Origin: Spirochaetota bacterium | GTDB taxonomy: Bacteria > Spirochaetota > UBA4802 > JAGODF01 | Assembly: GCA_036846345.1 (NCBI GenBank) | Contig: DAIUCD010000001.1 | Coordinates: 258,723 to 322,722, forward strand | Length of the DNA stretch: 64,000 nucleotides | Direction: 5' to 3' | Shown: positions 3-44,773 of the stretch, one piece after another | Position numbering within the stretch: position 1 is the first letter of the stretch | Layout of the letters: every line of letters begins with the position of its first letter | Notes under the pieces: generated by a model | Told to the model about the DNA's origin: nothing | The model's database searches: none | What the model saw: the letters and a program-made list of their open reading frames with translations, nothing else | Translations under genes and position numbers: made by a program

Positions 3-920
3 ATGGTTGTAACCATTACCAATGACGGTTTTATCCGAAGGCTGTCCGTGGATATCTTTAAAAAGCAACGCCGGGGTGGCAAGGGTGTCAGCGGTATCAG
101 TATCAAGAAAGAGGACTTTATTAAAATGATGAGCATCTCCTCCACTCACGATACCATGTACCTCTTTTCCAACAAGGGAAAGATCTTTGGTTTGAAAACC
201 TATGAGCTTCCCATGGCAAGCAAGGTTGGTCGGGGAAAATCGATTAAGGGGATCATCAATCTTTCTACAGGAGAGGATATATCCGCCATATGCTCTGTAC
301 CGGATACAGAGACCGATGCCTATATGTGCATGGTAACCCGGGAGGGGATCTTAAAGAAAATCGACATCGGTGAATTCAGGAACGCTAAAAAGGGCGGTAT
401 TATAGCCATAAATTTAAAAAAGGAAGACGAACTGGTAGATGTCAAGCTTGTTGAAAAAAATGATGATATCGTCATAGCAACGAAGATGGGGCTGATTCTT
501 CGAACCAACTTGAGCAAGATGAGATCGATGGGACGAAATGCAGCCGGGATTATTGGTATGCGTCTTGCAAAGAATGATGAGATTATCGGTCTTGATGTAG
601 TAAAGGAAAAATCGAGCTTATTCATGGTTTCCTCGAAGGGCTATGGAAAGAGAATGGAGTATAAGAATTTTCACAACAAAGGCCGAGGCGGTAAAGGGAT
701 GACATATGCCAAGGTCATGGATAAAAACGGTGTTGCGATAGGCATACGTTCGGTTTTCCCTGAGGATGAGATTATCATAGCCTCCAAAGGGGGTATGACT
801 ATACGCCTCAATGCCAAAGACGTTTCCATGCAGGGCCGTGCCACGGTTGGTGTCAGGCTTCTGAATGTTCCTGATGAGGACAGCGTCTCGGATCTTGCGG
901 TTATTTCAGACGAGCAGTAG
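3..920 (+). CDS. gyrA: DNA gyrase subunit A, C-terminal beta-pinwheel domain (5' end truncated by window edge)
   Basis: Repeated GyrA C-terminal blade motifs (GKGVSGI..., GRGGKGM..., GRATVGVR...). The ORF runs from the window edge to the stop at 920. Confidence 0.85.
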   Translation: MVVTITNDGFIRRLSVDIFKKQRRGGKGVSGISIKKEDFIKMMSISSTHDTMYLFSNKGKIFGLKTYELPMASKVGRGKSIKGIINLSTGEDISAICSVPDTETDAYMCMVTREGILKKIDIGEFRNAKKGGIIAINLKKEDELVDVKLVEKNDDIVIATKMGLILRTNLSKMRSMGRNAAGIIGMRLAKNDEIIGLDVVKEKSSLFMVSSKGYGKRMEYKNFHNKGRGGKGMTYAKVMDKNGVAIGIRSVFPEDEIIIASKGGMTIRLNAKDVSMQGRATVGVRLLNVPDEDSVSDLAVISDEQ

Positions 921-998
921 AAAAACTCTGCAATACTTTTAATTGTTTAAGGGAATGATTGTTAAGCTAGTTGTCTGTAAAGAAATTGTCAGACCTTA

Positions 999-1026
999 TT
1001 GAACGATTGTGAACTGAATGTAAAAT
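999..1026 (+). promoter_or_regulatory. sigma70-like promoter (TTGAAC-16 nt-TAAAAT) upstream of the HMGL/Cache gene
   Basis: TTGAAC at 999-1004 and TAAAAT at 1021-1026 with a 16-nt spacer. The downstream gene has an AAAGGAG RBS 6-7 nt before the ATG at 1101. Confidence 0.4.
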
Positions 1027-1100
1027 TATTTCAAAACCTGCGAGTTTTGGTGATAAAATCTATTCATTAATAAGGAAGGTGATATGAAAGGAGATGGGTC

Positions 1101-2951
1101 ATGAGATTTAAGCATAAGCGAGGTATCAGGATGCTTACGGAAATGAATGATGTGCTGGATTTTGCTACTCTGAATAAGGAATATGAGATTGAAAACACGG
1201 AAAAGCCCAACCTGTATAGAGAGATTTTTCCCTACGAAAAAATAAGCCGTGTTCCCTTCGATAATAAGTTTATTCCCATCATGCCTTCTGCGAAGTTTCG
1301 TCTTTCTGACACCACCTTTAGAGATGGACAACAGGCACGACCACCCTATACAGTAGAACAGATCAGTAAAATATTCGATTACCTTCACCGGTTGTCAGGT
1401 CCCAACGGACTCATCACCCATTCGGAGTTCTTCCTCTATACAGCCAAGGATCGGGAGGCCGTAGAAGTCTGCAGAAAAAAGGGATACAGGTTTCCCTATA
1501 TAACTGGGTGGATCAGGGCCAACAAGAAGGATTTTTCCCTGGTTAAAGAGATGGAACTGGAGGAAACGGGCATTCTTGCATCAGTTTCCGATTATCATAT
1601 ATATCTCAAACTGAATAAAAACAGAAAGGAGGCGGCGGAGGATTATCTGGCAATAGTCGACACATCCCTTGAGAACGGAATTATCCCTCGATTGCACTTT
1701 GAGGATATAACAAGGAGCGATATCTATGGTTTTGTGGTTCCTTTCGTTCAGAAGCTCGTTCGGCGGATGGAGGAGACTAAAATACCCATCAAGGTGAGGC
1801 TTTGTGATACGATGGGATATGGCGTTACTTATCCGATGGCCGCTCTTCCCCGATCTGTACCGAGATTGATTCGGGCTGTTATAGATGACGGGGGAATGCC
1901 GGGCGAGAACCTGGAATGGCACGGGCACAATGATTTCTACAGGGGATTTACCAATGCGACCTATGCCTGGCTTTATGGCTGTGATACAGTTAATGCAACA
2001 TTCCTTGGGTTCGGGGAGAGAACGGGGAATACTCCCCTGGAGGCGATGGTTATCGAATATATTTCACTCACCGGGGATGATGATGGCATCGATACCGCAG
2101 CCATTACGGATATGGCGCATTATTTTGAATCTATCGGGTTTTCTATTCCGGAAAATCTGCCCTTTGTCGGTGCTGACTTTAATGTGACCAGGGCGGGAAT
2201 CCATGTCGATGGGCTTCTTAAGAACGAGGAGATATATAACATATTCAATACGGAAAAAATTCTCAATAAACCGCTGGGTATCGGGATTACTGACAAATCG
2301 GGAGTGGCGGGAGTTTCCAAATGGGTCAACAGTCATCTGGGGTTGACCGGGGATTATGCTATCGACAAAAAAGATCCCGGGATCACACGGATGCATACAC
2401 GGATCATGAAGGAGTACGAAAATGGTCGTGTGACCGCCATGTCCAATGAAGAGCTGGAAATGTACGCCCGGAAATTTCTGCCCCTCTACTTTATTTCGGA
2501 TTTCGACAAGATCAAGATGCGGGAGCAGAAGCAAGCCGTTTCACTGCTCATCAAATACTTGAACCATGAAGACATCAAATCGATGAATCCTGAAAAACAG
2601 GAAGTTGTTCTGGGAGAACTTGTAGAGAACGATCCATATATCTGTTTTGCTTATGTTGTGGATTCCACGGGAAAGAAGATTACGAGGCATATTACACAGA
2701 TTACGGATAAATCGAAATACGATAAGGGATTAATCGCTACGGATTATTCCGATAGGGATTGGTTCATCAATGTCATGCAGACTGGTAAGACTTATGTCTC
2801 GGATATATTCGTGTCTAAAATTACAGGCAAACTTTCCCTTACAGTCTCCGGGCCTGTCGTGGATTCCGGGGACCGTATCGTGGGTGTATTGGGTTTGGAT
2901 ATACGTTTTGAAGATCTTGCCAAGATTGAGGATGATGAAGATGTCATTTGA
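1101..2951 (+). CDS. DRE-TIM metallolyase (HMGL-like; isopropylmalate/citramalate/homocitrate synthase superfamily) fused to a C-terminal Cache/PAS-like ligand-binding domain
   Basis: DRE-TIM motifs LSDTTFRDGQQ and EWHGHNDF. The last ~130 aa carry Cache signatures (DYSDRDWF; SDIFVSKITGKLSLTVSGPV). A strong RBS precedes the start. No TM segment or signal peptide is visible. Confidence 0.7.
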   Translation: MRFKHKRGIRMLTEMNDVLDFATLNKEYEIENTEKPNLYREIFPYEKISRVPFDNKFIPIMPSAKFRLSDTTFRDGQQARPPYTVEQISKIFDYLHRLSGPNGLITHSEFFLYTAKDREAVEVCRKKGYRFPYITGWIRANKKDFSLVKEMELEETGILASVSDYHIYLKLNKNRKEAAEDYLAIVDTSLENGIIPRLHFEDITRSDIYGFVVPFVQKLVRRMEETKIPIKVRLCDTMGYGVTYPMAALPRSVPRLIRAVIDDGGMPGENLEWHGHNDFYRGFTNATYAWLYGCDTVNATFLGFGERTGNTPLEAMVIEYISLTGDDDGIDTAAITDMAHYFESIGFSIPENLPFVGADFNVTRAGIHVDGLLKNEEIYNIFNTEKILNKPLGIGITDKSGVAGVSKWVNSHLGLTGDYAIDKKDPGITRMHTRIMKEYENGRVTAMSNEELEMYARKFLPLYFISDFDKIKMREQKQAVSLLIKYLNHEDIKSMNPEKQEVVLGELVENDPYICFAYVVDSTGKKITRHITQITDKSKYDKGLIATDYSDRDWFINVMQTGKTYVSDIFVSKITGKLSLTVSGPVVDSGDRIVGVLGLDIRFEDLAKIEDDEDVI

Positions 2952-2954
2952 ATC

Positions 2955-3560
2955 ATGAACATCAGGCCGGAAAAGACCATAGAAAGAATGAAATCGGGGT
3001 GTCTCGTGAAAATTGTGGCACTGGGGGATTCATTGACCCAGGGCTGGATGGTCAGTAAGGGATATCTGGATTTCCTCTATGAAATGTTGAAGACTAGATA
3101 TCCTGAGAGCAGGTTAACTATCCTGAACCGGGGTGTTCCTGGGGATACTGCGGAGGGGGGTCTCTACCGTCTTCGAGAGGATGTACTTGACTGCGATCCG
3201 GATTGTGTATTGGTACAGTTTGCTCTCAATGATGGTTTCATGGGAATCCCTCCGCAGGTTTTTCAAAACCAATTGGGGACCATAATTGATCATGTACAAA
3301 ACGATACAGAAGCGGATATAGTTTTGCTTACCTCGGTTTTTCTGGATGATAATCGGGAAAATGAAATGGCTATGAAATATTATCAGAAAATTCAAGATCT
3401 GGCTAGGAAGAATCATCTGCCCATGGCAAGGGTTCATGAATACTGGAAAACAAAGATTGCGGAGGGTGCGGAGTTCAGCAATCTGGTTCAGTATGACAGG
3501 GTTCACCCTACGGTCGAGGGATATCGCCTGATGGCGGAAGCGGTTATGGAGGTTTTTTAG
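2955..3560 (+). CDS. SGNH/GDSL-family hydrolase
   Basis: GDS(L) block VALGDSLTQGW near the N-terminus, plus a downstream DG and a C-terminal H block. The start codon is uncertain; an alternative ATG lies at 2988. Confidence 0.7.
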   Translation: MNIRPEKTIERMKSGCLVKIVALGDSLTQGWMVSKGYLDFLYEMLKTRYPESRLTILNRGVPGDTAEGGLYRLREDVLDCDPDCVLVQFALNDGFMGIPPQVFQNQLGTIIDHVQNDTEADIVLLTSVFLDDNRENEMAMKYYQKIQDLARKNHLPMARVHEYWKTKIAEGAEFSNLVQYDRVHPTVEGYRLMAEAVMEVF

Positions 3561-4843
3561 AGGCGTTCCTCTTTTTGATAAACGAGTTTTCCGTTGCAGA
3601 TAGTGTACTCGACAGATCCCGTCAACTCCCTCCCCATGAAGGGGGTGTTCTTGCAGCGGGAGATGATAAAGTCCTCATTGATTGTGATCTTCTTCTCAGG
3701 ATCGATGACTGTAATATCCGCAGCTCCTCCTTCTTTTAAACGGCCTTTGTCAATTTTTAATATTCCCGCAGGATTGACTGTTACGGGTTTAAAAGCCTGC
3801 AGCGGGGTGAAATCATACTGGTTGATCAGTATGGAAATGATGAGCGGGACCGCTGTTTCCAGTCCTATAATACCGAAAGGTGCGTATTCAATTTCCTGCA
3901 TCTTTTCATTACGCAGATGAGGAGCGTGGTCTGTAGCGATGACATCGATGGTTCCGTTCCTGAGTCCTTCGATGATAGCCAGTCTGTCCTGCTCGGTTCT
4001 CAGCGGGGGATTCATCTTGGCCATTGACATGTGTTCCTCAATACAGTCATCTGTGAGAGAGAAATAATGGGGAGCGGTTTCACAGGTTACCTGAATCCCC
4101 TCCTCCTTTGCACGGCGGATGATCTCGACAGAGCCGCCTGAAGAGACGTGAGCGACATGGAGTCTTCCACGGGTCATCCTGGCAAGGATGACGTCTCTTG
4201 CGATCATGATCTCTTCTGATTCCCGAGGGCTTCCCTTTAGTCCAAGCCGGATGGAGTTTTTGCCTTCGTTGATGATTCCCTCATCCGTAAGGAGAAGATC
4301 CTCGGAATGAGTGATGATGGGGGCATCAAACATGCGTGCGTATTCCAATGCACGCCTCATGAGAATGGAACTCATGACAGGCCTGCCGTCATCGGAAAAA
4401 CCTACTGCACCCCCTTTGACCAATTCCCCCATTTCGGAGATTTCTTCGCCCCGGGCGCCCTTGGTGATGGTTGCGATAGGGAATACGTTGATCGGACCCT
4501 TTTCTGCTTCGAGACGGATGAAGCGTACAAGGGCCTGATTGTCTATGACAGGATTCGTGTTGGGCATGGTACATACGGATGTAAATCCGCTTTTTGCGGC
4601 GACAGTGGAACCGCCAATAATGGTTTCCTGATCCTCCCTTCCGGGTTCGCGGAAGTGAACATGCATATCGATGAGGCCCGGCAGGACAAGACATCCCCGA
4701 GCATCGATGATAAGGGCGTCTTCAGGAGCGCTGATATTACTGCCGATTCGTGCAATGGTTCCCGACTCGATAAGTACATCAGCTACCTCATCAAAATTGG
4801 AGGATGGGTCCAGCACCCTCCCCTTCTGTATTAAAAGTTTCAT
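3557..4843 (-). CDS. pyrC: dihydroorotase (class I / multifunctional-complex type)
   Basis: PGLIDMHVHFREPG metal-binding motif and amidohydrolase fold, 428 aa. Sits directly downstream of pyrB on the same strand. Confidence 0.9.
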   Translation of the reverse strand: MKLLIQKGRVLDPSSNFDEVADVLIESGTIARIGSNISAPEDALIIDARGCLVLPGLIDMHVHFREPGREDQETIIGGSTVAAKSGFTSVCTMPNTNPVIDNQALVRFIRLEAEKGPINVFPIATITKGARGEEISEMGELVKGGAVGFSDDGRPVMSSILMRRALEYARMFDAPIITHSEDLLLTDEGIINEGKNSIRLGLKGSPRESEEIMIARDVILARMTRGRLHVAHVSSGGSVEIIRRAKEEGIQVTCETAPHYFSLTDDCIEEHMSMAKMNPPLRTEQDRLAIIEGLRNGTIDVIATDHAPHLRNEKMQEIEYAPFGIIGLETAVPLIISILINQYDFTPLQAFKPVTVNPAGILKIDKGRLKEGGAADITVIDPEKKITINEDFIISRCKNTPFMGRELTGSVEYTICNGKLVYQKEERL

Positions 4844-5862: not shown

Positions 5863-8800
5863 CTAAACGGTTGACCGCAGGGCATTTGCATTGTCCTGCA
5901 GTACTTTCCGGATTTTTCCCTGGGGAAGGGGAATATGATTGAGATAAAATCCCTGAATCTCGTCGCATCCTATCTTTTGAAGAATTTCAAACTGCCCCTT
6001 GGTCTGAACCCCTTCAGCAACAACCTTTAAACGGTTGGGTTTGAACCCATGAACCATGTTTATAATATTTTTGACCAGGGTAACATAATTTGTATCTATC
6101 TCGAGATGCTGAATAAAGGATTTGTCCAGCTTAACAGTATTGATGATGTCCGGCAGGGCGGGCAATTTGGCGAGGGCCGAGTATTCCGTTCCAAAATCAT
6201 CGATAGCCAGATGGCATCCCAAACCCTTAATCTGATTGAGTATGGTGATGCTTTCGTCTTTAACGACCTCCCGCTCAATAATCTCCAGCTCAAGCAGATG
6301 CGGAGGAATGCCGGTTTTTTCCAGAAGGACCTTCAGCGAACTGAGCAGTGTTTCATTCAGGTGACGCGGGGAGATGTTAACGGATAATTGAAGATCCGGA
6401 GTGATTTTATGCCACAGTTTCAGCTGATGACAGGCCCTTCGCAGTATTTCATCCTCAATGAGCTGTATCATGCCGGTCTCCTCAGAGATGGTTATGAAGG
6501 AGGAGGGCGGAAGAAGGCCTCTTTGGGGATGCATCCAGCGCATGAGGGCTTCGAGACCTACGATGCGGCCTTGCATGTTGATACGGGGCTGATAGAATAT
6601 TTTGAATGCCTTGGATATGGCCAGTTTTCCCGTTGCCAAGCGTAAATCCTTTTCAAGGTCCAGTTTTTCAATGAGTTCCCTGTGAAGCCTCTCATCGTAA
6701 AACATATAGGGCTTACGGTTGTCTCTGGCGGTTTTAGCCGCCTGGCGACTCGTGGACAGCACCTTGGAGGGATTGCCCGGCTTGCTCGACTTATAGTCCG
6801 TGGGATAGATGGAGAGTCCAATACTCACATCCAGTTTTGTCTGGCCCCTGAAGTCCCGGGAGAAGTGTTTGATGGCTTTGTTGACGATTTTAATCGCTTC
6901 ATCTTCAACCTTCTGATATGTCTGAAGGGGTAGAAGAACCGTAAATTCACACTCATCGGTTCGGGCAATGGAATCCCGCTTGAAGAATATATCCGAGAGA
7001 CTGTCTGCAATGTCCTGTATCAAAATGTTCACCATGTCATTTCCGAAACCGGGATTACGATGTCTTATCTTGTCGAGTTCTTCTCTCGAAAGATCAATAG
7101 TCATGACGGCGAAAAACTTGTCGGATTTCTCAGTAGCAAGGATTTCCTCAGAGAGCTTTCTTTCAAATCCCTTCAAATTGAGGAGGTTGGTGAATTCGTC
7201 ATGAAGTTCAAGAAATTCCGAACGTTTTCGTTCTGATATGTCCCTTATGTTAAAGACGGCACCGACGATCTCGTTATTCCAGCTTGTAACGTTTCCAGTT
7301 ACCTCGACCCATATAAAGGATTTATTGGCGTGACGAACTCTCAGTTCCAGGGGTACAGGATCCTGCTTCTCAATCAGGACCTGTTTGATTACAGAGTTGA
7401 TAGTCTCTACATCATCGGCATGAACAAATTCAAAAAGGGAATGCCCTACGACTTCAGAGACCTCATATCCGGTCATGCGTCGGGGAGTGCTGATGTATTC
7501 GATGATTCCCTTCCTATCGATCTGACAGATGATATCCACCATGTTGCGGGTTATCTGCTCAAAACGTCTTTGGCTTTCCTTCAGCAGAGACAAGTCGCGA
7601 ACAGCAAGAACGGTCATCTCGTCCCCCTGGAATATTATCGTATCACAACGCAGTTCCACAGGCAGAATATGACCGTCGTTATTGATCAGGTCGACTTCAA
7701 AGGGGTGTTGGTATCGATTGAGTGTGTTTTTCAGATAAATGTCATGGTGTTCCAGGGTGATGTATTCGAGAAGATTTTTTCCAATTACCTGCAGGGGGTT
7801 GTATCCGCTCATGCGAAAAAAAGCCTGATTGGCGATGATAATCCCGTTGGCATCGTGGATGATGATTCCGTCGAAGGTGGCGTCTGCCAGCAGGCGAAAA
7901 CGGCTTTCGCTTTCAGATAAAGCCATTTCAGCCCTTTTCCGGATTGTTGTGTTGCGGCATACTATATGGTAACCGGATATGTCCTTTCCAGAAAAGGTGA
8001 TCTGGACATTTTGCTCAATCCAGATCTCGTCACCATCCTTTGTTAGTATTGGGAATTCCATATAGGTACTGGGTATTCTTTTTTGATTCTGATTTCTATA
8101 AAACTGAAAAACTGTTTTTTTGTAATCCTCCCTGACAAAATCCAGATAGCTTTTACCGACAAGATCAGTTTCAGAATATCCGGTGGTTTTATAGGCGGCC
8201 GGGTTACAATAGATAATATTACCCTTCAAATCCAGAGTGTATATAATGTCACTGGTTGAATTGACGATTTGTTCGTATTTCTTCTTATTGAATTTGAGTT
8301 CCTCTTCGAAGGCCTTCTTTTCGGTTATATCCAGCATGGCAGACATAACAATGTTTCGATTGCTTACCCGTACTGATTTGGAATACAGGGAGACCCATCT
8401 CAACTCACCTGATTTGGTGATTATCCTGAAGTCATAATTGGGGATTGCGTGAACACAATCGCCACTCATCTTTATCAGGGCCTGTCTTTCCACGAAGGGT
8501 CTGTCGTCAGGATGAACCAGATTGAGGAAACCGTTGATTTCCCAGAGCAGTATTTCTTCCCGGGAATATCCGGTTAACTGCAATATGAGATCATTGGCAT
8601 ATCCTATCTTCCCATCCTCAATGGTGTATATTCCCAGGATGGACTGATCTGTCAGGGCCCGGAATTTTTCCTCATTGTCCCGCAGGATGGTTTCAATCTT
8701 CTTTTTCTCGGTAATATCTCTGACGATAACCACTCTTCCTCTCTCAGTACCGGCTATGGGGCCCCCCAGTAGTTCAAGGTAGAGAGTCTCTCCGTCTCCA

Positions 8801-9069
8801 CGTCGGGTTCGAATCTCGTAGGGTGCGGGAAAATTATTTTGAATATTAAATTCAATTAATTCTCTATCATTTTTGTCAACGAATTCGGAGAAATGGCGTC
8901 CTATAATCTCTGATGGGGAGATGCCGATTATGCGGGAAAGCTGATCATTGACTTCACGGATGATTCCGTTGCAATGGACCAGGTATCCGTCCTTCATGCT
9001 GTTGATGACCTTATGGTAGTACTCCAGTTTTTGCTGGAGCTCCTTTGATGCGGTTGAATCATCCGTCAT
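5863..9069 (-). CDS. multi-PAS sensor protein with a degenerate GGDEF domain and an intact EAL phosphodiesterase domain
   Basis: Several PAS/PAC blocks, each preceded by a TEKK/ERK linker. The GGDEF motif is replaced by TDECEF. EAL motifs are intact: GLEALMRW, LELEIIEREV, DDFGTEYS, AEGVQT. Confidence 0.85.
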   Translation of the reverse strand: MTDDSTASKELQQKLEYYHKVINSMKDGYLVHCNGIIREVNDQLSRIIGISPSEIIGRHFSEFVDKNDRELIEFNIQNNFPAPYEIRTRRGDGETLYLELLGGPIAGTERGRVVIVRDITEKKKIETILRDNEEKFRALTDQSILGIYTIEDGKIGYANDLILQLTGYSREEILLWEINGFLNLVHPDDRPFVERQALIKMSGDCVHAIPNYDFRIITKSGELRWVSLYSKSVRVSNRNIVMSAMLDITEKKAFEEELKFNKKKYEQIVNSTSDIIYTLDLKGNIIYCNPAAYKTTGYSETDLVGKSYLDFVREDYKKTVFQFYRNQNQKRIPSTYMEFPILTKDGDEIWIEQNVQITFSGKDISGYHIVCRNTTIRKRAEMALSESESRFRLLADATFDGIIIHDANGIIIANQAFFRMSGYNPLQVIGKNLLEYITLEHHDIYLKNTLNRYQHPFEVDLINNDGHILPVELRCDTIIFQGDEMTVLAVRDLSLLKESQRRFEQITRNMVDIICQIDRKGIIEYISTPRRMTGYEVSEVVGHSLFEFVHADDVETINSVIKQVLIEKQDPVPLELRVRHANKSFIWVEVTGNVTSWNNEIVGAVFNIRDISERKRSEFLELHDEFTNLLNLKGFERKLSEEILATEKSDKFFAVMTIDLSREELDKIRHRNPGFGNDMVNILIQDIADSLSDIFFKRDSIARTDECEFTVLLPLQTYQKVEDEAIKIVNKAIKHFSRDFRGQTKLDVSIGLSIYPTDYKSSKPGNPSKVLSTSRQAAKTARDNRKPYMFYDERLHRELIEKLDLEKDLRLATGKLAISKAFKIFYQPRINMQGRIVGLEALMRWMHPQRGLLPPSSFITISEETGMIQLIEDEILRRACHQLKLWHKITPDLQLSVNISPRHLNETLLSSLKVLLEKTGIPPHLLELEIIEREVVKDESITILNQIKGLGCHLAIDDFGTEYSALAKLPALPDIINTVKLDKSFIQHLEIDTNYVTLVKNIINMVHGFKPNRLKVVAEGVQTKGQFEILQKIGCDEIQGFYLNHIPLPQGKIRKVLQDNANALRSTV

Positions 9070-29052: not shown

Positions 29053-29619
29053 ATGCTGAATAATGATGTATTGGTACTAAACTCTGGATTTATACCCATC
29101 CGTATTTCCAATGTACGGGAAGCGGTCTGTCTTATCAGCGCAAGAAAGGCCGTTGCGGTAGTGGAGGAGAATGCCTTCATCCGCTCTCCTTCCATTTCTC
29201 TGAGGGTTCCCTCGGTCATCTCCATTCTCGGTTATAATAGCTTTCCCAAGCGAAAGGTGGCTTTTTCCAAACTCAATGTACTGTATCGGGATGACATGAT
29301 ATGCCAGTATTGCGGAAGGAGATTTTCTGTCAGGGATCTTACTGTAGATCATGTCATCCCCAGGAGCCGCTGGGAGCAGATTACCGGGAAATCACCCAGG
29401 GAGGGATTTTCAAGCTGGCAGAATCTCGTTTGTGCCTGTCGCTGGTGCAATAATCGCAAGGGAAACAGGCTCCTTGCAGAAATTGGGTGGCAGCTTCCGA
29501 GAGATCCCTATGAGCCGGAATATATGCCCTATATTGTCCTGTCCTATGACAAGGCTCGCAATCGCGGCTGGCTGCCTTTCTGCTCCTTCAATGTGCGTCT
29601 GATCAGTATGATACCCTAG
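29053..29619 (+). CDS. HNH endonuclease (McrA-like small HNH family)
   Basis: HNH motifs CQYCG...DHVIPRS...CRWCNNRKGN. Family-typical N-terminus MLNNDVLVLNSGFIPI taken as the start (ATG 29053). Confidence 0.8.
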   Translation: MLNNDVLVLNSGFIPIRISNVREAVCLISARKAVAVVEENAFIRSPSISLRVPSVISILGYNSFPKRKVAFSKLNVLYRDDMICQYCGRRFSVRDLTVDHVIPRSRWEQITGKSPREGFSSWQNLVCACRWCNNRKGNRLLAEIGWQLPRDPYEPEYMPYIVLSYDKARNRGWLPFCSFNVRLISMIP

Positions 29620-31544
29620 ATCCGGCTCTTAGTGTAATTCAACAGTCCTCCCAGAAGCAATATCTCCCTTTGACGCGGGCTGGCGAGAAGGGAAGTTTTG
29701 AAAACATGCCCGGATATCTCCACTTCGATTTCCTGCCCCCTGTCCACCTGTTCCCGGCTTTTTTTAATCAGAAAACGGTCTCCCTGCTGGATCTTTTCAT
29801 AATCATCGGGGTTCGTGAAAACTAGCGGAAGAATACCAAAGTTGATGAGATTGGATGTATGGATGCGTTCAAAGGATTTGGCCAGTACAGCGCGTACTCC
29901 CAGATACATGGGGCAGATGGCGGCATGTTCCCGGCTGGATCCCTGACCATAGCTCAACCCTCCTATGATCATGGTGAACTGTCCCCGTTTTTTGTTTTCC
30001 AGAGCCCGGGATGAGAAGTCCTTGTCCACGTTTTCGAAGACGTATTTTGAATATTCCGGTATATTTGAGCGGTACTTCAGATGCTGCCCGGCGGGCATAA
30101 TATGGTCGGTGGTTATTTTATCCCCCACCTTGAGGCCGATGATACCGGCAATCTCCTCCTGTAAAGGCTCCGTGTAAGGAGGCTCACCGATGTTGGGTCC
30201 CCGGAAGACGGGACTCTTCTTCTCAGCGGGAGGGAGTATCATTGAATCATCGATAAGAAACCGTTCCGGCATGGGGACAACCGGGGCTTCCTGTGCGGGA
30301 TAATCGAGGGGGTTGACGAGTTCCCCCATGAGGGCTGACAGGGCAGCGGTTTCGGGGCTTACGAGAATGATCTGGGCCGATTGGGTTCCGGAGCGCCCCT
30401 CGAAATTACGATTATTCGTACGGAGGGAGACTCCCTCCGTTTGAGGGGCCAGACCGTTTCCGATGCAGAAGCCGCAAGCGGATTCCATGATTCGGGCACC
30501 GCTGGCGATCATATCGGCCATGGCTCCGTTTCGGGATATCATCTCCATGACCTGACGGGATCCCGGCGCTACGGCCAGGCTTACATCAGGATGGACCTTC
30601 CTGCCCTTGAGAATGGACGCAACCGTCATGAGATCTTTGAAGGATGAATTGGTACAGCTTCCAATGGCCACCTGATCGATTCTTATCCCCTTGACATCGG
30701 CCACTCGCTTGACATGGTCCGGCGAATGAGGAAGGGCCGCCATCGGTTCTATTGTATTAAGATCAATTTCGATGGTTCTATCGTAGACAGCGTCCGGACC
30801 CGCTGTAAGCTCTCTCCACTTGTGCCCGCGGTCCTGGGACTCAAGAAAGCCGCGGGTGATTTCATCGCTGGGAAAAACGGAGGTTGTAACCCCCAGTTCT
30901 GCTCCCATGTTGGTGATAGTGGCTCTCTCCGGAACGGAGAGTGAGGCGACTCCGGGACCCGTGTATTCCACGACACATCCCACATTGCCCTTGGTGGTAA
31001 GTATTTCCAAGACCTTGAGGATGATATCCTTGGCGGATACCCATGGCCGGAGCGCTCCAGTGAGCCTGACATTGATGACCCGGGGAGCTGTGAGATAGAA
31101 GGGCCCCCCGCCCATGGCGACCGCCACATCCAGACCCCCGGCGCCAATGGCGATCATACCGATGCCGCCCCCTGTGGGCGTGTGACTGTCGGAGCCCAGC
31201 AGGGTTGCTCCCGGACGCCCGAACCGTTCCAGATGAACCTGATGGCAGATCCCGTTCCCCGCACGGGAGTAGTAAATGCCGTGATTGGCGTTCATCGTCT
31301 GGAGATATCTGTGATCGTCCGCGTTCTCAAAACCCATCTGGAGGGTATTGTGGTCCACATAGGATACCGAGATTTCCGTTTTAACCCGATCAATCCCCAT
31401 GGCCTCGAATTGCAGGTAGGCCATGGTTCCCGTGGCGTCCTGGGTCAGAGTCTGGTCGATTCGAATGCCTATTTCGCTTCCGGGTATGAGATCTCCCTCC
31501 ATGAGGTGTTCTTGAAGTATTTTATAGGTAACAGACTGGTTCAT
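29616..31544 (-). CDS. aconitase-family hydratase with fused large (catalytic) and small (swivel) domains; putative aconitate hydratase
   Basis: Aconitase/LeuC-type N-terminus (ILQEHL...IRIDQTLTQDATG), Fe-S ligand region (GSCTNSS; CGFCIGNG) and a C-terminal LeuD-like swivel domain. 642 aa. Confidence 0.8.
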   Translation of the reverse strand: MNQSVTYKILQEHLMEGDLIPGSEIGIRIDQTLTQDATGTMAYLQFEAMGIDRVKTEISVSYVDHNTLQMGFENADDHRYLQTMNANHGIYYSRAGNGICHQVHLERFGRPGATLLGSDSHTPTGGGIGMIAIGAGGLDVAVAMGGGPFYLTAPRVINVRLTGALRPWVSAKDIILKVLEILTTKGNVGCVVEYTGPGVASLSVPERATITNMGAELGVTTSVFPSDEITRGFLESQDRGHKWRELTAGPDAVYDRTIEIDLNTIEPMAALPHSPDHVKRVADVKGIRIDQVAIGSCTNSSFKDLMTVASILKGRKVHPDVSLAVAPGSRQVMEMISRNGAMADMIASGARIMESACGFCIGNGLAPQTEGVSLRTNNRNFEGRSGTQSAQIILVSPETAALSALMGELVNPLDYPAQEAPVVPMPERFLIDDSMILPPAEKKSPVFRGPNIGEPPYTEPLQEEIAGIIGLKVGDKITTDHIMPAGQHLKYRSNIPEYSKYVFENVDKDFSSRALENKKRGQFTMIIGGLSYGQGSSREHAAICPMYLGVRAVLAKSFERIHTSNLINFGILPLVFTNPDDYEKIQQGDRFLIKKSREQVDRGQEIEVEISGHVFKTSLLASPRQREILLLGGLLNYTKSRI

Positions 31545-36223: not shown

Positions 36224-37780
36224 ATGAAAGCGATACTGGAGAGTTTCTTCTTAGGAAAGTACAGGGAAGCGTCCTTTCTGAAGCAGAGACTTGCCAAGAC
36301 CCTCATGTATTTCAATCTCGTGATATCCGCCCTTATTTTAACCCTGTTTGTCGTGGTTGTCATTCTCTCTCCCAGTGCGATTCGAACGGCAGGTCCGATC
36401 ATCGTCGTCATCGTCCTGGTCTGTCTCACGTCACTGTTTATACTGAGAAGCGGTCATTACAGTTTTGCCTCTAATTTTGTCGCTACGGTAATGGTTGTAT
36501 CTCTAATTCTGGGTATTTATGGCCGGGCCTTCAAGGATCCCCATACGGTTTATACAACGAATTTTTACTATCTCATGACCACCATCGTGTTTACAACCCT
36601 CTTCAGTACGCGACGATGGGTCATCAGCTTCACAGGCTTGATCATTGCCAACGATGTGATAGTGTTTTTGCTGATCAAAGATGTCCTGGATGAATCATCC
36701 CTTCAGGCGGCCCAGATAGGTATGATCTATTCCATATGCGCCATCGTAATAATAACCATACTGGTACAGCTTATCTATCAGATCTTTCAGTCTGCCATGG
36801 AAAAGATACGTGAAGAGCTATTAAAAAATCAGGAGCAGTATGGTATCATCGATAAGCTCTTTAACTCCGCCAAAGAGACCTCCAACCAACTGGCGGATCT
36901 CTCCAAGAACCTTTCCCTGACCTCTGAAAAGTTCTCCGGGAATTCACAGAATCAGGCCTCATCGATTGAGGAAATCACCTCGGCCATTGAAGAGATTTCT
37001 GCCGGAATGGATACCATGCACGAGGGCTCAAGCAGCCAGCACAGCGCCGTAATGGTGCTGATCGGAAAAATGAACGATCTTTCAGGAAGTATTAACGATG
37101 TGGGGGGCGTGTCCCGGGACACCTTGCGGTTGACTAACAGAATTTCCATCGAGGCGAAGGAAGGGGAGAACTCCCTCAAGCAGATGAATGAGAGTCTGGC
37201 TCATATCGTCAAGAGTTCTGATGACATCAAGAACATCATAGCCATTATTGATGACATTTCCGACCGGATCAATCTCCTCTCCTTGAATGCAGCCATTGAG
37301 GCAGCCAGGGCCGGTGATGCCGGGAGGGGTTTTGCCGTTGTGGCCGATGAGGTATCGAAGCTTGCCGATCAGACGGCGACGAGCATCAAGGAAATCGACA
37401 GCCTGATCCGGGTGACCAATGACGAAATCAACCATGGCATGAGCGATATGATGGATGTCATCAACAAAATCAGGACCATGATTGACGGCATCGGGGAGAT
37501 TACGTTAAAGATGAATAGCATTTTTGACTATGTCCAGAATCAGGTGGATCTGAATGTCGAAGTCAACAGGCATGTGGACACGGTCAAACTGAAGTCCGAG
37601 GAGATCAGAGTCGGTATTGAAGAACAGAAGAGGGCCTTTAATGAGATCCTCAAATCCATCGGAGAGATAAACGAATCCACGCAGGTTACGGTTTCAGAAG
37701 CTGATAAAATTGCGGACAACTCACGGCATATATCCGAGATGTCTGAAAATCTTGAGGAAATCATCAATTTCATCCGATAG
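36224..37780 (+). CDS. methyl-accepting chemotaxis protein with a multi-TM N-terminal region (no large periplasmic domain)
   Basis: Highly conserved MCP signalling hairpin [38 protein letters not shown]. About four N-terminal TM helices. Confidence 0.85.
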
Positions 37781-42691: not shown

Positions 42692-44773
42692 ATGGAAGAG
42701 AACAATACGTCCATCAGATACATCCGCAAGCGGGATGGGCGTATCGTACCCTTCAATGAGGAAAAGATTACCGACGCTGTCTTCAAGGCTGCCCGGGCCA
42801 TGGGGGGGAGCGATAGAAATGCAGCGGATGCGGTTACAAAATCCGTTGTAAGCATCCTGGACCTTCTTTACAAAGATGACCGTATTCCCACTGTGGAGAA
42901 TGTTCAGGACCTCGTTGAAAAGATGCTCATTGAGAAAGGGCATGCTAAGGTCGCCAAAGCCTATATCCTTTATCGGGAACAGCATAGAAAGATTCGGGAG
43001 GGAAAGAGTCTTCTTGCTGAGGGTATCAAGCTTGTCGAGGATTATCTTGACCGGTCTGACTGGCGGGTCAATGAAAACAGCAACATGAGCTATTCCCTCC
43101 AGGGCCTCAATAATCACATTGCCTCTGCCGTTACGGCCAAGTACTGGTTGGATCATATCTACCCTCCGGAAATGAGAGATGCTCACAGGAACTGTGATTT
43201 TCATATCCATGACTTGGGTCTTCTCTCCGCGTATTGCGTGGGATGGGACATCAAGGATCTGCTGATACAGGGATTCCGGGGAGTGAGCGGGAAAGTGGAG
43301 AGCCGTCCGGCAAAGCATTTTCGGAGTGCCCTGGGGCAGGTGGTGAATTTTTTCTATACCCTTCAGGGAGAGTCCGCAGGAGCTCAGGCATTTGCCAATT
43401 TCGACACCTATCTGGCACCTTTCATCAAATACGACAATCTCACCTACAGCGAGGTCAAGCAGTGCCTGCAGGAGTTTGTCTTCAACATGAACATCCCCAC
43501 CCGCGTGGGTTTTCAGACTCCCTTTACGAATGTAACCCTGGATATGAAGGTTCCCTCCAATATAGCCGATGATTTTGTGATCATCGGGGGAGAAATACGC
43601 GACAGAAAGTACGGTGATTTCCAGGAGGAGCTTAATATATTCAACAGGGCCTTTGCCGAATGCCTGGTTGAGGGGGATGCCCGCCACCGGATCTTCACTT
43701 TTCCCATACCGACCTACAATATCACCCGGGATTTCGAATGGGACAATCCTGCCCTGGACCGGTTATGGGAGATGACAGCCCGGTACGGAATTCCCTACTT
43801 TGCCAATTTCGTCAATTCCGACATGGATCCTGAGGACGCCCGTTCCATGTGCTGCCGTCTTCGCCTTGACAACCGGGAGCTCAGAAGCCGCGGAGGAGGC
43901 CTTTTTGGCGCCAATCCCTTGACGGGAAGTATCGGAGTCATAACCATCAACATGCCCCGTCTGGCTTACAAGACTCGGGGGAATGAAGCTTCCTTTTTTA
44001 GTGAACTGGATTCCCTCATGGACCTGTCCCGGGATTCCCTGGAGATCAAGCGCAAGGTGCTGGAAAATTTTACCACCAACAATCTCTATCCCTATACAAG
44101 GCATTATCTGAAGGACATCTTTAACCGTACGGGAAAATACTGGGTAAACCATTTCTCAACGATCGGGCTGGTGGGCATGAATGAGGCCTGCCTGAATATA
44201 CTGGGTCAGGATATCTCCACAGAAGAGGGTAAAGAATTTTCAGTGAAGGTCCTCCATCATATGAGAGACCGGATACAGGGATATCAGGAGGAGTCGGGGA
44301 ATCTTTACAACCTTGAGGCCACTCCAGCCGAGGGGGTCAGTTACCGCTTTGCCAAACATGACAGGGAGACATTCCCGGACATCCTTACGGCAGGACAGGT
44401 GGAACCTTATTATACCAACTCCATACATCTGCCGGTGGGTTATTCCGATGATATATTTGATGTCCTGAATCATCAGAATGAGCTGCAGGCCCAGTTTACG
44501 GGAGGGACGGTGGTTCACTGCTTCATCGGGGAGAAGATTGATGATCCTCAGATGGTCAAGAAGCTGGTTCGGAAAATTGCCGAGAACTACGTCATCCCCT
44601 ATTTTACAATCACCCCAACCTTCAGCATATGTCCCGTGCACGGTTACATCCCAGGATCCCACAAATATTGTCCTCATGAACATTCGCCGGAGGAACTGGA
44701 AGCATACGGTATTGAGGTGTCTGATCCTGATGCCGATAATATAAAAGAGAAAGACAAGAAGATGGCCATCTAG
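42692..44773 (+). CDS. nrdD: anaerobic ribonucleoside-triphosphate reductase (class III RNR) catalytic polypeptide, ending before the glycyl-radical loop
   Basis: N-terminal ATP-cone (IRYIRKRDGRIVPFNEEKI), NrdD core and a C-terminal Cys/His metal site (CPVH...CPHEH). Terminates at TAG 44771-44773 with no RVxGY glycyl motif. Confidence 0.9.
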   Translation: MEENNTSIRYIRKRDGRIVPFNEEKITDAVFKAARAMGGSDRNAADAVTKSVVSILDLLYKDDRIPTVENVQDLVEKMLIEKGHAKVAKAYILYREQHRKIREGKSLLAEGIKLVEDYLDRSDWRVNENSNMSYSLQGLNNHIASAVTAKYWLDHIYPPEMRDAHRNCDFHIHDLGLLSAYCVGWDIKDLLIQGFRGVSGKVESRPAKHFRSALGQVVNFFYTLQGESAGAQAFANFDTYLAPFIKYDNLTYSEVKQCLQEFVFNMNIPTRVGFQTPFTNVTLDMKVPSNIADDFVIIGGEIRDRKYGDFQEELNIFNRAFAECLVEGDARHRIFTFPIPTYNITRDFEWDNPALDRLWEMTARYGIPYFANFVNSDMDPEDARSMCCRLRLDNRELRSRGGGLFGANPLTGSIGVITINMPRLAYKTRGNEASFFSELDSLMDLSRDSLEIKRKVLENFTTNNLYPYTRHYLKDIFNRTGKYWVNHFSTIGLVGMNEACLNILGQDISTEEGKEFSVKVLHHMRDRIQGYQEESGNLYNLEATPAEGVSYRFAKHDRETFPDILTAGQVEPYYTNSIHLPVGYSDDIFDVLNHQNELQAQFTGGTVVHCFIGEKIDDPQMVKKLVRKIAENYVIPYFTITPTFSICPVHGYIPGSHKYCPHEHSPEELEAYGIEVSDPDADNIKEKDKKMAI

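Follow-up and report, generated by a model that had tools for sequence, protein, structure and literature searches.

The stretch of DNA analysed in this study, hereafter the window, comprises 64,000 nucleotides (nt) from a Spirochaetota bacterium (contig DAIUCD010000001.1, positions 258,723 to 322,722), and close to its start an open reading frame (ORF) on the + strand, placed by an ORF check at exactly positions 1101-2951, encodes a complete protein of 616 amino acids (aa) plus a stop codon. Comparison with known enzymes strongly supports this gene product as a Re-citrate synthase (Re-CS) of the Clostridium kluyveri / Syntrophus aciditrophicus type (EC 2.3.3.3, K05942), to whose C-terminus a Cache module is fused. 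The protein, whose parts are all given on the + strand, begins with a clade-specific N-terminal extension (aa 11-65, nt 1131-1295) modelled by AlphaFold2 (AF2) with low confidence, in which P36-N-L38-x-R40-x-x-F43-P44-Y45 is conserved, a motif common to the C. kluyveri and S. aciditrophicus Re-CS. The HMGL-like / DRE-TIM catalytic barrel follows (aa 66-339, nt 1296-2117; identified by Pfam, alignment and AF2/Foldseek) and holds DTTFRDGQQ (aa 70-78, nt 1308-1334), E201 and the metal-binding H274-G-H276-N-D (nt 1920-1934). The post-barrel subdomains (aa 340-461, nt 2118-2483), with an invariant A365-G-x-H368-x-D370-G371 and a weak HCS_D2 match, are followed by a linker, formed by the long helices with which the Cache module begins (aa 462-511, nt 2484-2633; helices 467-487 and 497-510), where conservation is lowest in the protein. 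The PDC core of the Cache module (aa 512-606, nt 2634-2918) carries the near-invariant residues Y518, R552, W554, F555, F/Y570, S572, T575, T581, S583 and D600, its pocket codons lying in the R552-F555 block (nt 2754-2765) and at D600 (nt 2898-2900), and the protein closes with an acidic tail, KIEDDEDVI (aa 607-616, nt 2919-2948), that is unstructured in the model. A short E/D-rich tail after the Cache module was seen in essentially all fused homologues.

In Pfam searches, the barrel matched HMGL-like (PF00682) over aa 66-339 (E = 9e-27; 94.5 bits, cut-off 29), and the C-terminal region matched MCP-like_PDC_1 over aa 504-607 (47.1 bits, cut-off 27) and dCache_1 over aa 495-606 (41 bits, slightly below the cut-off of 45), the latter aligned over profile positions 45-155 of 240, that is, the first-module half only. 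A second tandem PDC module was not found, Pfam and the AF2 model both giving a single one. LeuA_dimer (PF08502) was not matched in the C-terminal region by Pfam even at E ≤ 1, and a LeuA_dimer or other known regulatory domain at the C-terminus was rejected as a candidate for lack of a Pfam match. The protein has a charged N-terminus, its Kyte-Doolittle mean over 19 residues never exceeds 1.17, and neither a transmembrane (TM) helix nor a signal peptide was found. It therefore looks cytoplasmic along its whole length, the Cache module as well, and export or membrane insertion of the Cache domain was rejected for want of a hydrophobic segment or signal peptide. These results bear out the original prediction, made from the letters of the window, which had described a cytoplasmic DRE-TIM synthase genuinely fused to a Cache/PDC domain rather than to LeuA_dimer: the N-terminal domain matches a DRE-TIM profile well above cut-off and the barrel fold is recovered, the Pfam, AF2 and Foldseek results agree on the appended domain, and each motif that it quoted can be located (LSDTTFRDGQQ, aa 68-78; HGHNDF, aa 274-279; DYSDRDWF, aa 548-555; the Cache motif VSKITGKLSLTVSGPV, aa 571-586).

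The assignment of the catalytic part rests on comparison with SYN_02536 of S. aciditrophicus and CKL_0973 of C. kluyveri, both listed as known, isolated Re-citrate synthases (PMC12016533). The window protein is 54% identical to SYN_02536 over 585 aa, Cache region included, and 47% identical to CKL_0973 over 436 aa (aa 28-461), values that are slightly underestimated because the text of the supplement carries optical character recognition errors (comparison sequences for SYN_02536 were taken from Table S1 of PMC12016533). Signatures common to the window protein and the clade of these two enzymes are the N-terminal PNL.R.IFPY extension, DTTFRDGQQ and EWHGHNDF. The likeness to SYN_02536 extends over the entire layout, from the N-terminal extension through the DRE-TIM barrel and post-barrel subdomains to the C-terminal Cache, with its SDR(E/D)WF and SK(I/M)TG block; the two differ in phylum (Thermodesulfobacteriota versus Spirochaetota) and in some 25 extra C-terminal residues in SYN_02536. 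CKL_0973 and the putative clostridial enzymes CAC0970 and Clo1313 belong to the same catalytic clade (PN.Y.DIFPY, DTTFRDGQQ, EWHGHNDF), whereas they are shorter, reaching only about residue 450-465, and lack the Cache module, the C. kluyveri enzyme stopping near the end of the post-barrel subdomains (~aa 461). The SYN_02536 Re-citrate synthase is reportedly to be attributed to Kim et al. 2013 (J Bacteriol 195:1689), and that of CKL_0973 is said to go back to Li et al. 2007.

In a neighbour-joining (NJ) tree of the catalytic region, the window protein nested within the SYN_02536/CKL_0973 clade, which a long branch parts from LeuA, NifV and the Re-CS type of Dehalococcoides and Heliomicrobium. 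This other type, found in Dehalococcoides, Thermoanaerobacter and Heliomicrobium (CAI83711, HM1_2993), shares the overall reaction and the superfamily but forms a separate clade near NifV, is ~28% identical to the SYN/CKL type, carries RDGEQ or RDGVQ at the site of RDGQQ, and lacks a Cache module. The NCBIfam equivalogs for NifV, LeuA and CimA all scored far below threshold (120 bits where 463 are required, to take one case), which places the protein outside these families, while the label given by JGI to family members, 'citrate (Re)-synthase', corresponds to KO K05942. A Re-citrate-synthase role, which the original prediction had offered as speculative, is thus strongly supported by the identity to the known enzymes, by the clustering with them rather than with LeuA or NifV in the phylogeny, and by the aconitase-type and isocitrate dehydrogenase (IDH) genes downstream of homologues described below. 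The NCBI names for the fused family are inconsistent or wrong, including 'histone-lysine N-methyltransferase', 'triose-phosphate isomerase' and 'cache domain-containing protein'; among the homologues whose names were examined (P0022, P0023, P0065, P0090, P0091 and P0126-P0130), these are evident misannotations of Re-citrate synthase.

Across 38 homologues, R74, D75, E201, H274, H276 and H368 are invariant, as is A365-G-I-H368-x-D370-G, the trans-subunit His motif, and the catalytic residues align with the matching conserved motifs of citramalate and homocitrate synthases. The argument that the D-R-E triad has lost its Glu, and that substrate and reaction may therefore differ from those of LeuA or CimA, proved unpersuasive, because RDGQQ is an invariant signature of the clade and E201 is intact, aligning with the Glu of 'YLEDW' in LiCMS, which we take to be the catalytic Glu146. 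The residue after RDG varies across the DRE-TIM superfamily. The full-length AF2 model (pLDDT 76) matched, in Foldseek, the solved barrels of MAM, homocitrate synthase (HCS), isopropylmalate synthase (IPMS) and citramalate synthase (CMS) (6e1j, 6ktq, 4ov9, 3rmj, 3ble) with E values of 1e-18 to 1e-13; there was no solved Re-CS structure among these matches, the closest solved chain being at most 24% identical. AF2 confidence was very low in the GVTYPMAALPR loop (aa 240-250, nt 1818-1850) and in aa 354-381 (nt 2160-2243), the segment with the invariant AGIHxDG motif, which, to judge from the model, may be ordered only in the oligomer.

LeuA, CimA and homocitrate synthase share with the window protein the DRE-TIM barrel and post-barrel subdomains and provide its closest solved folds, among them LeuA with leucine bound and an archaeal HCS whose crystallised form lacks the RAM domain. 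They differ from it in sequence (at most 24% identity), in the appended domain, which here is PDC/Cache and not LeuA_dimer, and in substrate, which by orthology would be oxaloacetate here as against 2-oxoisovalerate, pyruvate and 2-oxoglutarate in LeuA, CimA and HCS. The C-terminal slot that holds the Cache module here holds a feedback domain in LeuA (LeuA_dimer) and in Sulfolobus HCS (RAM), and by analogy this shared position suggests the same logic of end-product control.

Structure prediction of the C-terminal region (aa 462-616; AF2 pLDDT 83, pTM 0.80) gave a true PDC fold, in which the long helices lie at the N-terminus and both a five-stranded sheet and the RxW[YF] helix are present. Foldseek matched this model to solved PDC/Cache sensors only, with a probability of 1.00. 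The best match was Bacillus subtilis KinD, free and pyruvate-bound (E = 3e-9), followed by Tlp3 (branched-chain amino acids), DctB (succinate), CitA (citrate), DcuS, WalK and the cytoplasmic YkuI; KinD was also the top match in the PDB by sequence (phmmer E = 1e-5, profile E = 1.5e-8). It is the membrane-distal PDC of KinD (4JGO/4JGP, pyruvate-bound) that best matches aa 495-606, and the likeness includes the SDxYxSxITG block and an Arg, KinD R131, which is replaced in the R131A entries 4jgq/4jgr and aligns with R552; KinD differs in being a double-PDC sensor that lies outside the cytoplasm and belongs to a membrane-bound histidine kinase. The usual topology of Cache domains, extracytoplasmic, beside TM helices and in a signalling protein, is not found here, the module sitting on a metabolic enzyme, and YkuI offers a precedent for a cytoplasmic Cache among the matches.

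A second point of reference is provided by the dCache_1AA sensors PctA, Tlp3 and Mlp37 (Gumerov et al. 2022, PMC8915833), whose carboxyl-binding R/W and amino-binding Y/D align with R552, W554, F/Y570 and D600. With the AA_motif of amino-acid sensors defined through PctA residues (PMC8915833), our profile alignment paired R126 with R552, W128 with W554, Y129 with F555, Y144 with F570 and D173 with D600. The spacing from Y to D is 29 residues in the Cache module and falls within the 27-34 range of PMC8915833, given there for a eukaryotic C-terminal half-motif. Compared with these sensors, the present module is single and cytoplasmic, is not followed by a TM helix, has F570, and lacks the first Tyr of the motif (R-5), which has no counterpart at a position that is variable among 143 fused homologues. 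The other pocket positions are strongly conserved in the same set: R552 in 140, W554 in 142, F555 in 141, S572 in 142, T575 in 141 and D600 in 142, with position 570 being Y in 106 (74%) and F in 36. The mean majority-residue frequency was 0.71 in the PDC core, 0.80 in the barrel and 0.61 in the linker helices, which puts the core close behind the barrel in conservation. Taken from both alignment and model, the C-terminal module is a bona fide single PDC/Cache domain with a predicted pocket that is canonical and strongly conserved.

The homologue search returned at least 8000 significant candidates, and the best 120 matches listed (57-100% identity, ~605 aa) all combine HMGL with Cache; the closest relatives among the matches listed are proteins from Spirochaetota metagenome-assembled genomes. 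A genome scan with one genome per species found a relative in at least 596 genomes, and 80 loci were kept for analysis, 74 of which hold the fused form, so that it occurs in at least 74 species genomes from about ten phyla. These include, within Thermodesulfobacteriota, Syntrophales, Syntrophorhabdales, Desulfobacterales, Desulfomonilales, Desulfovibrio, Bilophila, Mailhella and Thermodesulfatator, and, elsewhere, Nitrospirota, Spirochaetota, Omnitrophota, Armatimonadota, Elusimicrobia, Lentisphaerae and Termititenax. The remaining 6 loci, found in Bacillota, Auribacterota, Planctomycetota, Armatimonadota and one bacterium without classification, code for proteins that lack Cache and whose catalytic part is no less similar than that of the fused forms (56-62% identity). 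The original prediction had presented the fusion as unusual, which was overstated: the survey shows it to be widespread, and it is present in SYN_02536 itself. Neither the enzyme family nor the fusion is accordingly new to the databases, and a reportedly characterised enzyme has both. Literature searches on citrate synthase/Cache, HMGL/dCache, SYN_02536 or DVU0398 returned nothing on the fusion, a remark in the primary enzyme papers being still possible, and the role of the Cache module in Re-CS appears unexplored in the literature. In place of Cache, other modules occur on same-clade relatives, namely an N-terminal response-regulator receiver in P0148 (599 aa), C-terminal ACT domains in P0173 and P0208, which are of the same catalytic family, and an ATP-grasp / L-amino-acid-ligase fusion in P0166 (833 aa).

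We clustered the neighbouring ORFs across the 80 homologous loci and looked for those that recur on the same strand. NADP-isocitrate dehydrogenase lies downstream of the synthase in 15 loci and the large subunit of an aconitase/HacA-type dehydratase in 13; one or both were found in 20, often only 3-70 nt past the synthase stop, and all 20 are Cache-fused. As read from its gene content, a synthase-dehydratase-IDH locus is the operon expected for the conversion of acetyl-CoA plus oxaloacetate to 2-oxoglutarate. Directly upstream, aspS was found in 37 loci and hisS in 27, mostly in Thermodesulfobacteriota, and a conserved hisS-aspS-ReCS synteny was observed (e.g. loci L005 and L023). Sigma-54 regulator-like ORFs occurred in 20 loci and form a generic cluster. 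In the window itself, a fused large-plus-small-subunit aconitate hydratase is encoded at 29616-31544 (-), with 923 bits against NF005558; aconitate hydratase is the next pathway enzyme after citrate synthase. The window also encodes NrdD, an anaerobic ribonucleoside-triphosphate reductase with an ATP-cone (42692-44773, +), whose presence backs the earlier description of the organism as an apparent anaerobe.

On this evidence we regard as fairly probable a reading in which the protein is a Re-citrate synthase with an allosteric Cache module sensing a small carboxylate. The cytoplasmic, Re-face-specific synthase, with its divalent-metal DRE-TIM barrel, would make citrate from acetyl-CoA and oxaloacetate, and this citrate would feed the oxidative branch through aconitase and isocitrate dehydrogenase to give 2-oxoglutarate and glutamate in anaerobes. 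The Cache module would most likely bind a small carboxylate, either a 2-oxo acid or an amino acid, via R552, W554 and D600, and we infer that R552 and W554 hold the carboxylate and that D600 contacts an amino, hydroxyl or keto substituent; binding would then tune the catalytic domain allosterically, probably across the subunit interface through the long N-terminal helix. Physiologically sensible candidate ligands, as suggested by analogy, are glutamate, aspartate, pyruvate, oxaloacetate and 2-oxoglutarate. A more specific proposal, which we put forward tentatively and with rather less than even confidence, is that the module is a dedicated intracellular sensor of an amino acid (glutamate, aspartate) or a 2-oxo acid (pyruvate, oxaloacetate, 2-oxoglutarate) that gates carbon entry into the oxidative branch of the tricarboxylic acid (TCA) cycle across many anaerobes, including sulfate reducers, syntrophs, Nitrospirota and spirochaetes.

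Several observations weigh against the reading as a Re-citrate synthase with an allosteric sensor. KinD has Phe and Ala in place of W554 and D600, and the full AA_motif is not present either, with R552, W554 and D600 retained, F555 and F570 as substitutes, and the first Tyr absent; the two best analogies also suggest different ligand classes, KinD pointing to a 2-oxo acid and the AA_motif to an amino acid, and we have therefore kept the ligand class at 'small carboxylate'. In the window, the aconitase gene lies 27 kb from the synthase gene, and tblastn found no isocitrate dehydrogenase in its 64 kb, so that IDH was rejected as a member of the window. The Cache-less forms are interspersed among the fused ones in the NJ tree, from which repeated gain or loss of the Cache module follows, and the enzymes of C. 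kluyveri and other clostridia function in its absence, so that the module is dispensable for catalysis. In these circumstances the module could be merely structural: a ligand-free oligomerisation domain stabilising the tetramer or an oxygen-labile enzyme, whose conserved residues serve the fold or an interface. The functional Cache-less relatives and the repeated gain or loss would fit this view, as would the general tendency of PDC domains to dimerise via the long N-terminal helix and the fused S. aciditrophicus enzyme, which is reportedly a homotetramer. We nevertheless consider it unlikely, since the near-invariant residues are the canonical ligand contacts of PDC domains (Arg and Trp of the RxW[YF] helix and the last-strand Asp), the helices of the would-be dimer interface are the least conserved, and in sister clades this same enzyme is fitted with genuine ligand-binding or signalling domains (ACT, receiver).

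The two further alternatives concern what the enzyme makes and where its signal goes. Were it another synthase condensing acetyl-CoA with a 2-oxo acid (citramalate, homocitrate, isopropylmalate or methylmalate synthase), the Cache module would sense the end product of that pathway. Generic database names ('isopropylmalate/homocitrate/citramalate synthase') and the top NCBIfam scores, which are those of NifV and LEU1_arch, lean this way, and a few substitutions can shift specificity in the superfamily; the NCBIfam matches are nonetheless far under their cut-offs, the identity of 47-54% to known Re-CS contrasts with at most 24% to solved IPMS, HCS and CMS, and the operons of fused homologues contain aconitase-type and NADP-IDH genes rather than leu, lys or nif genes, which together make this alternative quite improbable. 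The idea that the enzyme moonlights as a one-component sensor, its Cache reporting metabolite levels to a separate partner and not to its own catalysis, seems to us more improbable still: across the 80 loci there is no conserved signalling gene adjoining the synthase, the recurrent neighbours being aspS, hisS, IDH and the aconitase-type gene, and Pfam finds no output domain in the protein, even though Cache domains normally belong to signal-transduction proteins and the receiver domain of one sister clade implies input from a two-component system.

If the Re-citrate synthase is indeed controlled through its Cache module, this would be the first Cache domain shown as an allosteric domain of a metabolic enzyme, and the same slot on one enzyme would be filled interchangeably by Cache, ACT and receiver modules. 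A ligand found for the ~150-aa Cache module would extend the roles of the largest bacterial sensor-domain family from signalling to direct enzyme control. Many strict anaerobes begin the synthesis of 2-oxoglutarate and glutamate with Re-citrate synthase, and the present assignment fills a gap in the TCA branch when the metabolism of this organism and of its relatives is reconstructed.

At the 5' end of the gene, two start codons are plausible by sequence, each with a Shine-Dalgarno (SD)-like sequence. For ATG1101 this is AAAGGAG (1087-1093, +), 7 nt upstream and read directly from the sequence, and for the alternative ATG1131 (M11) it is the weaker GAGG (1120-1123, +), likewise 7 nt upstream. 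Most homologues begin at the position equivalent to M11, and the basic ten-residue extension preceding it (MRFKHKRGIR, 1101-1130) is shared, among the matches listed, only with the closest relative, P0002. The upstream intergenic region of 180 nt holds two sigma-70-like promoter matches (999-1059, +), one at 999-1026 and one at 1030-1059 with an extended -10 TG, both being consensus matches only. A Rfam scan of positions 800-3800 found no known RNA or riboswitch, giving one chance snoRNA-like match (E = 0.5), and a riboswitch upstream of the synthase was rejected.

Downstream, a GDSL-family hydrolase gene (2955-3560, +) begins 4 nt past the synthase stop and is followed by a terminator-like hairpin at 3559-3572; this adjacency and the hairpin suggest that the synthase and the hydrolase may be co-transcribed as a two-gene unit. 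A conserved operon with the GDSL hydrolase was rejected: in L050, the closest genome locus, the synthase has no such gene beside it, and the hydrolase is not a recurrent neighbour in the 80 loci. Elsewhere in the window, a 1068-aa ORF at 5863-9069 (-), judged from its translation only, resembles a multi-PAS plus GGDEF/EAL-type cyclic di-GMP (c-di-GMP) signalling protein, and a protein with an MCP signalling domain is encoded at 36224-37780 (+).

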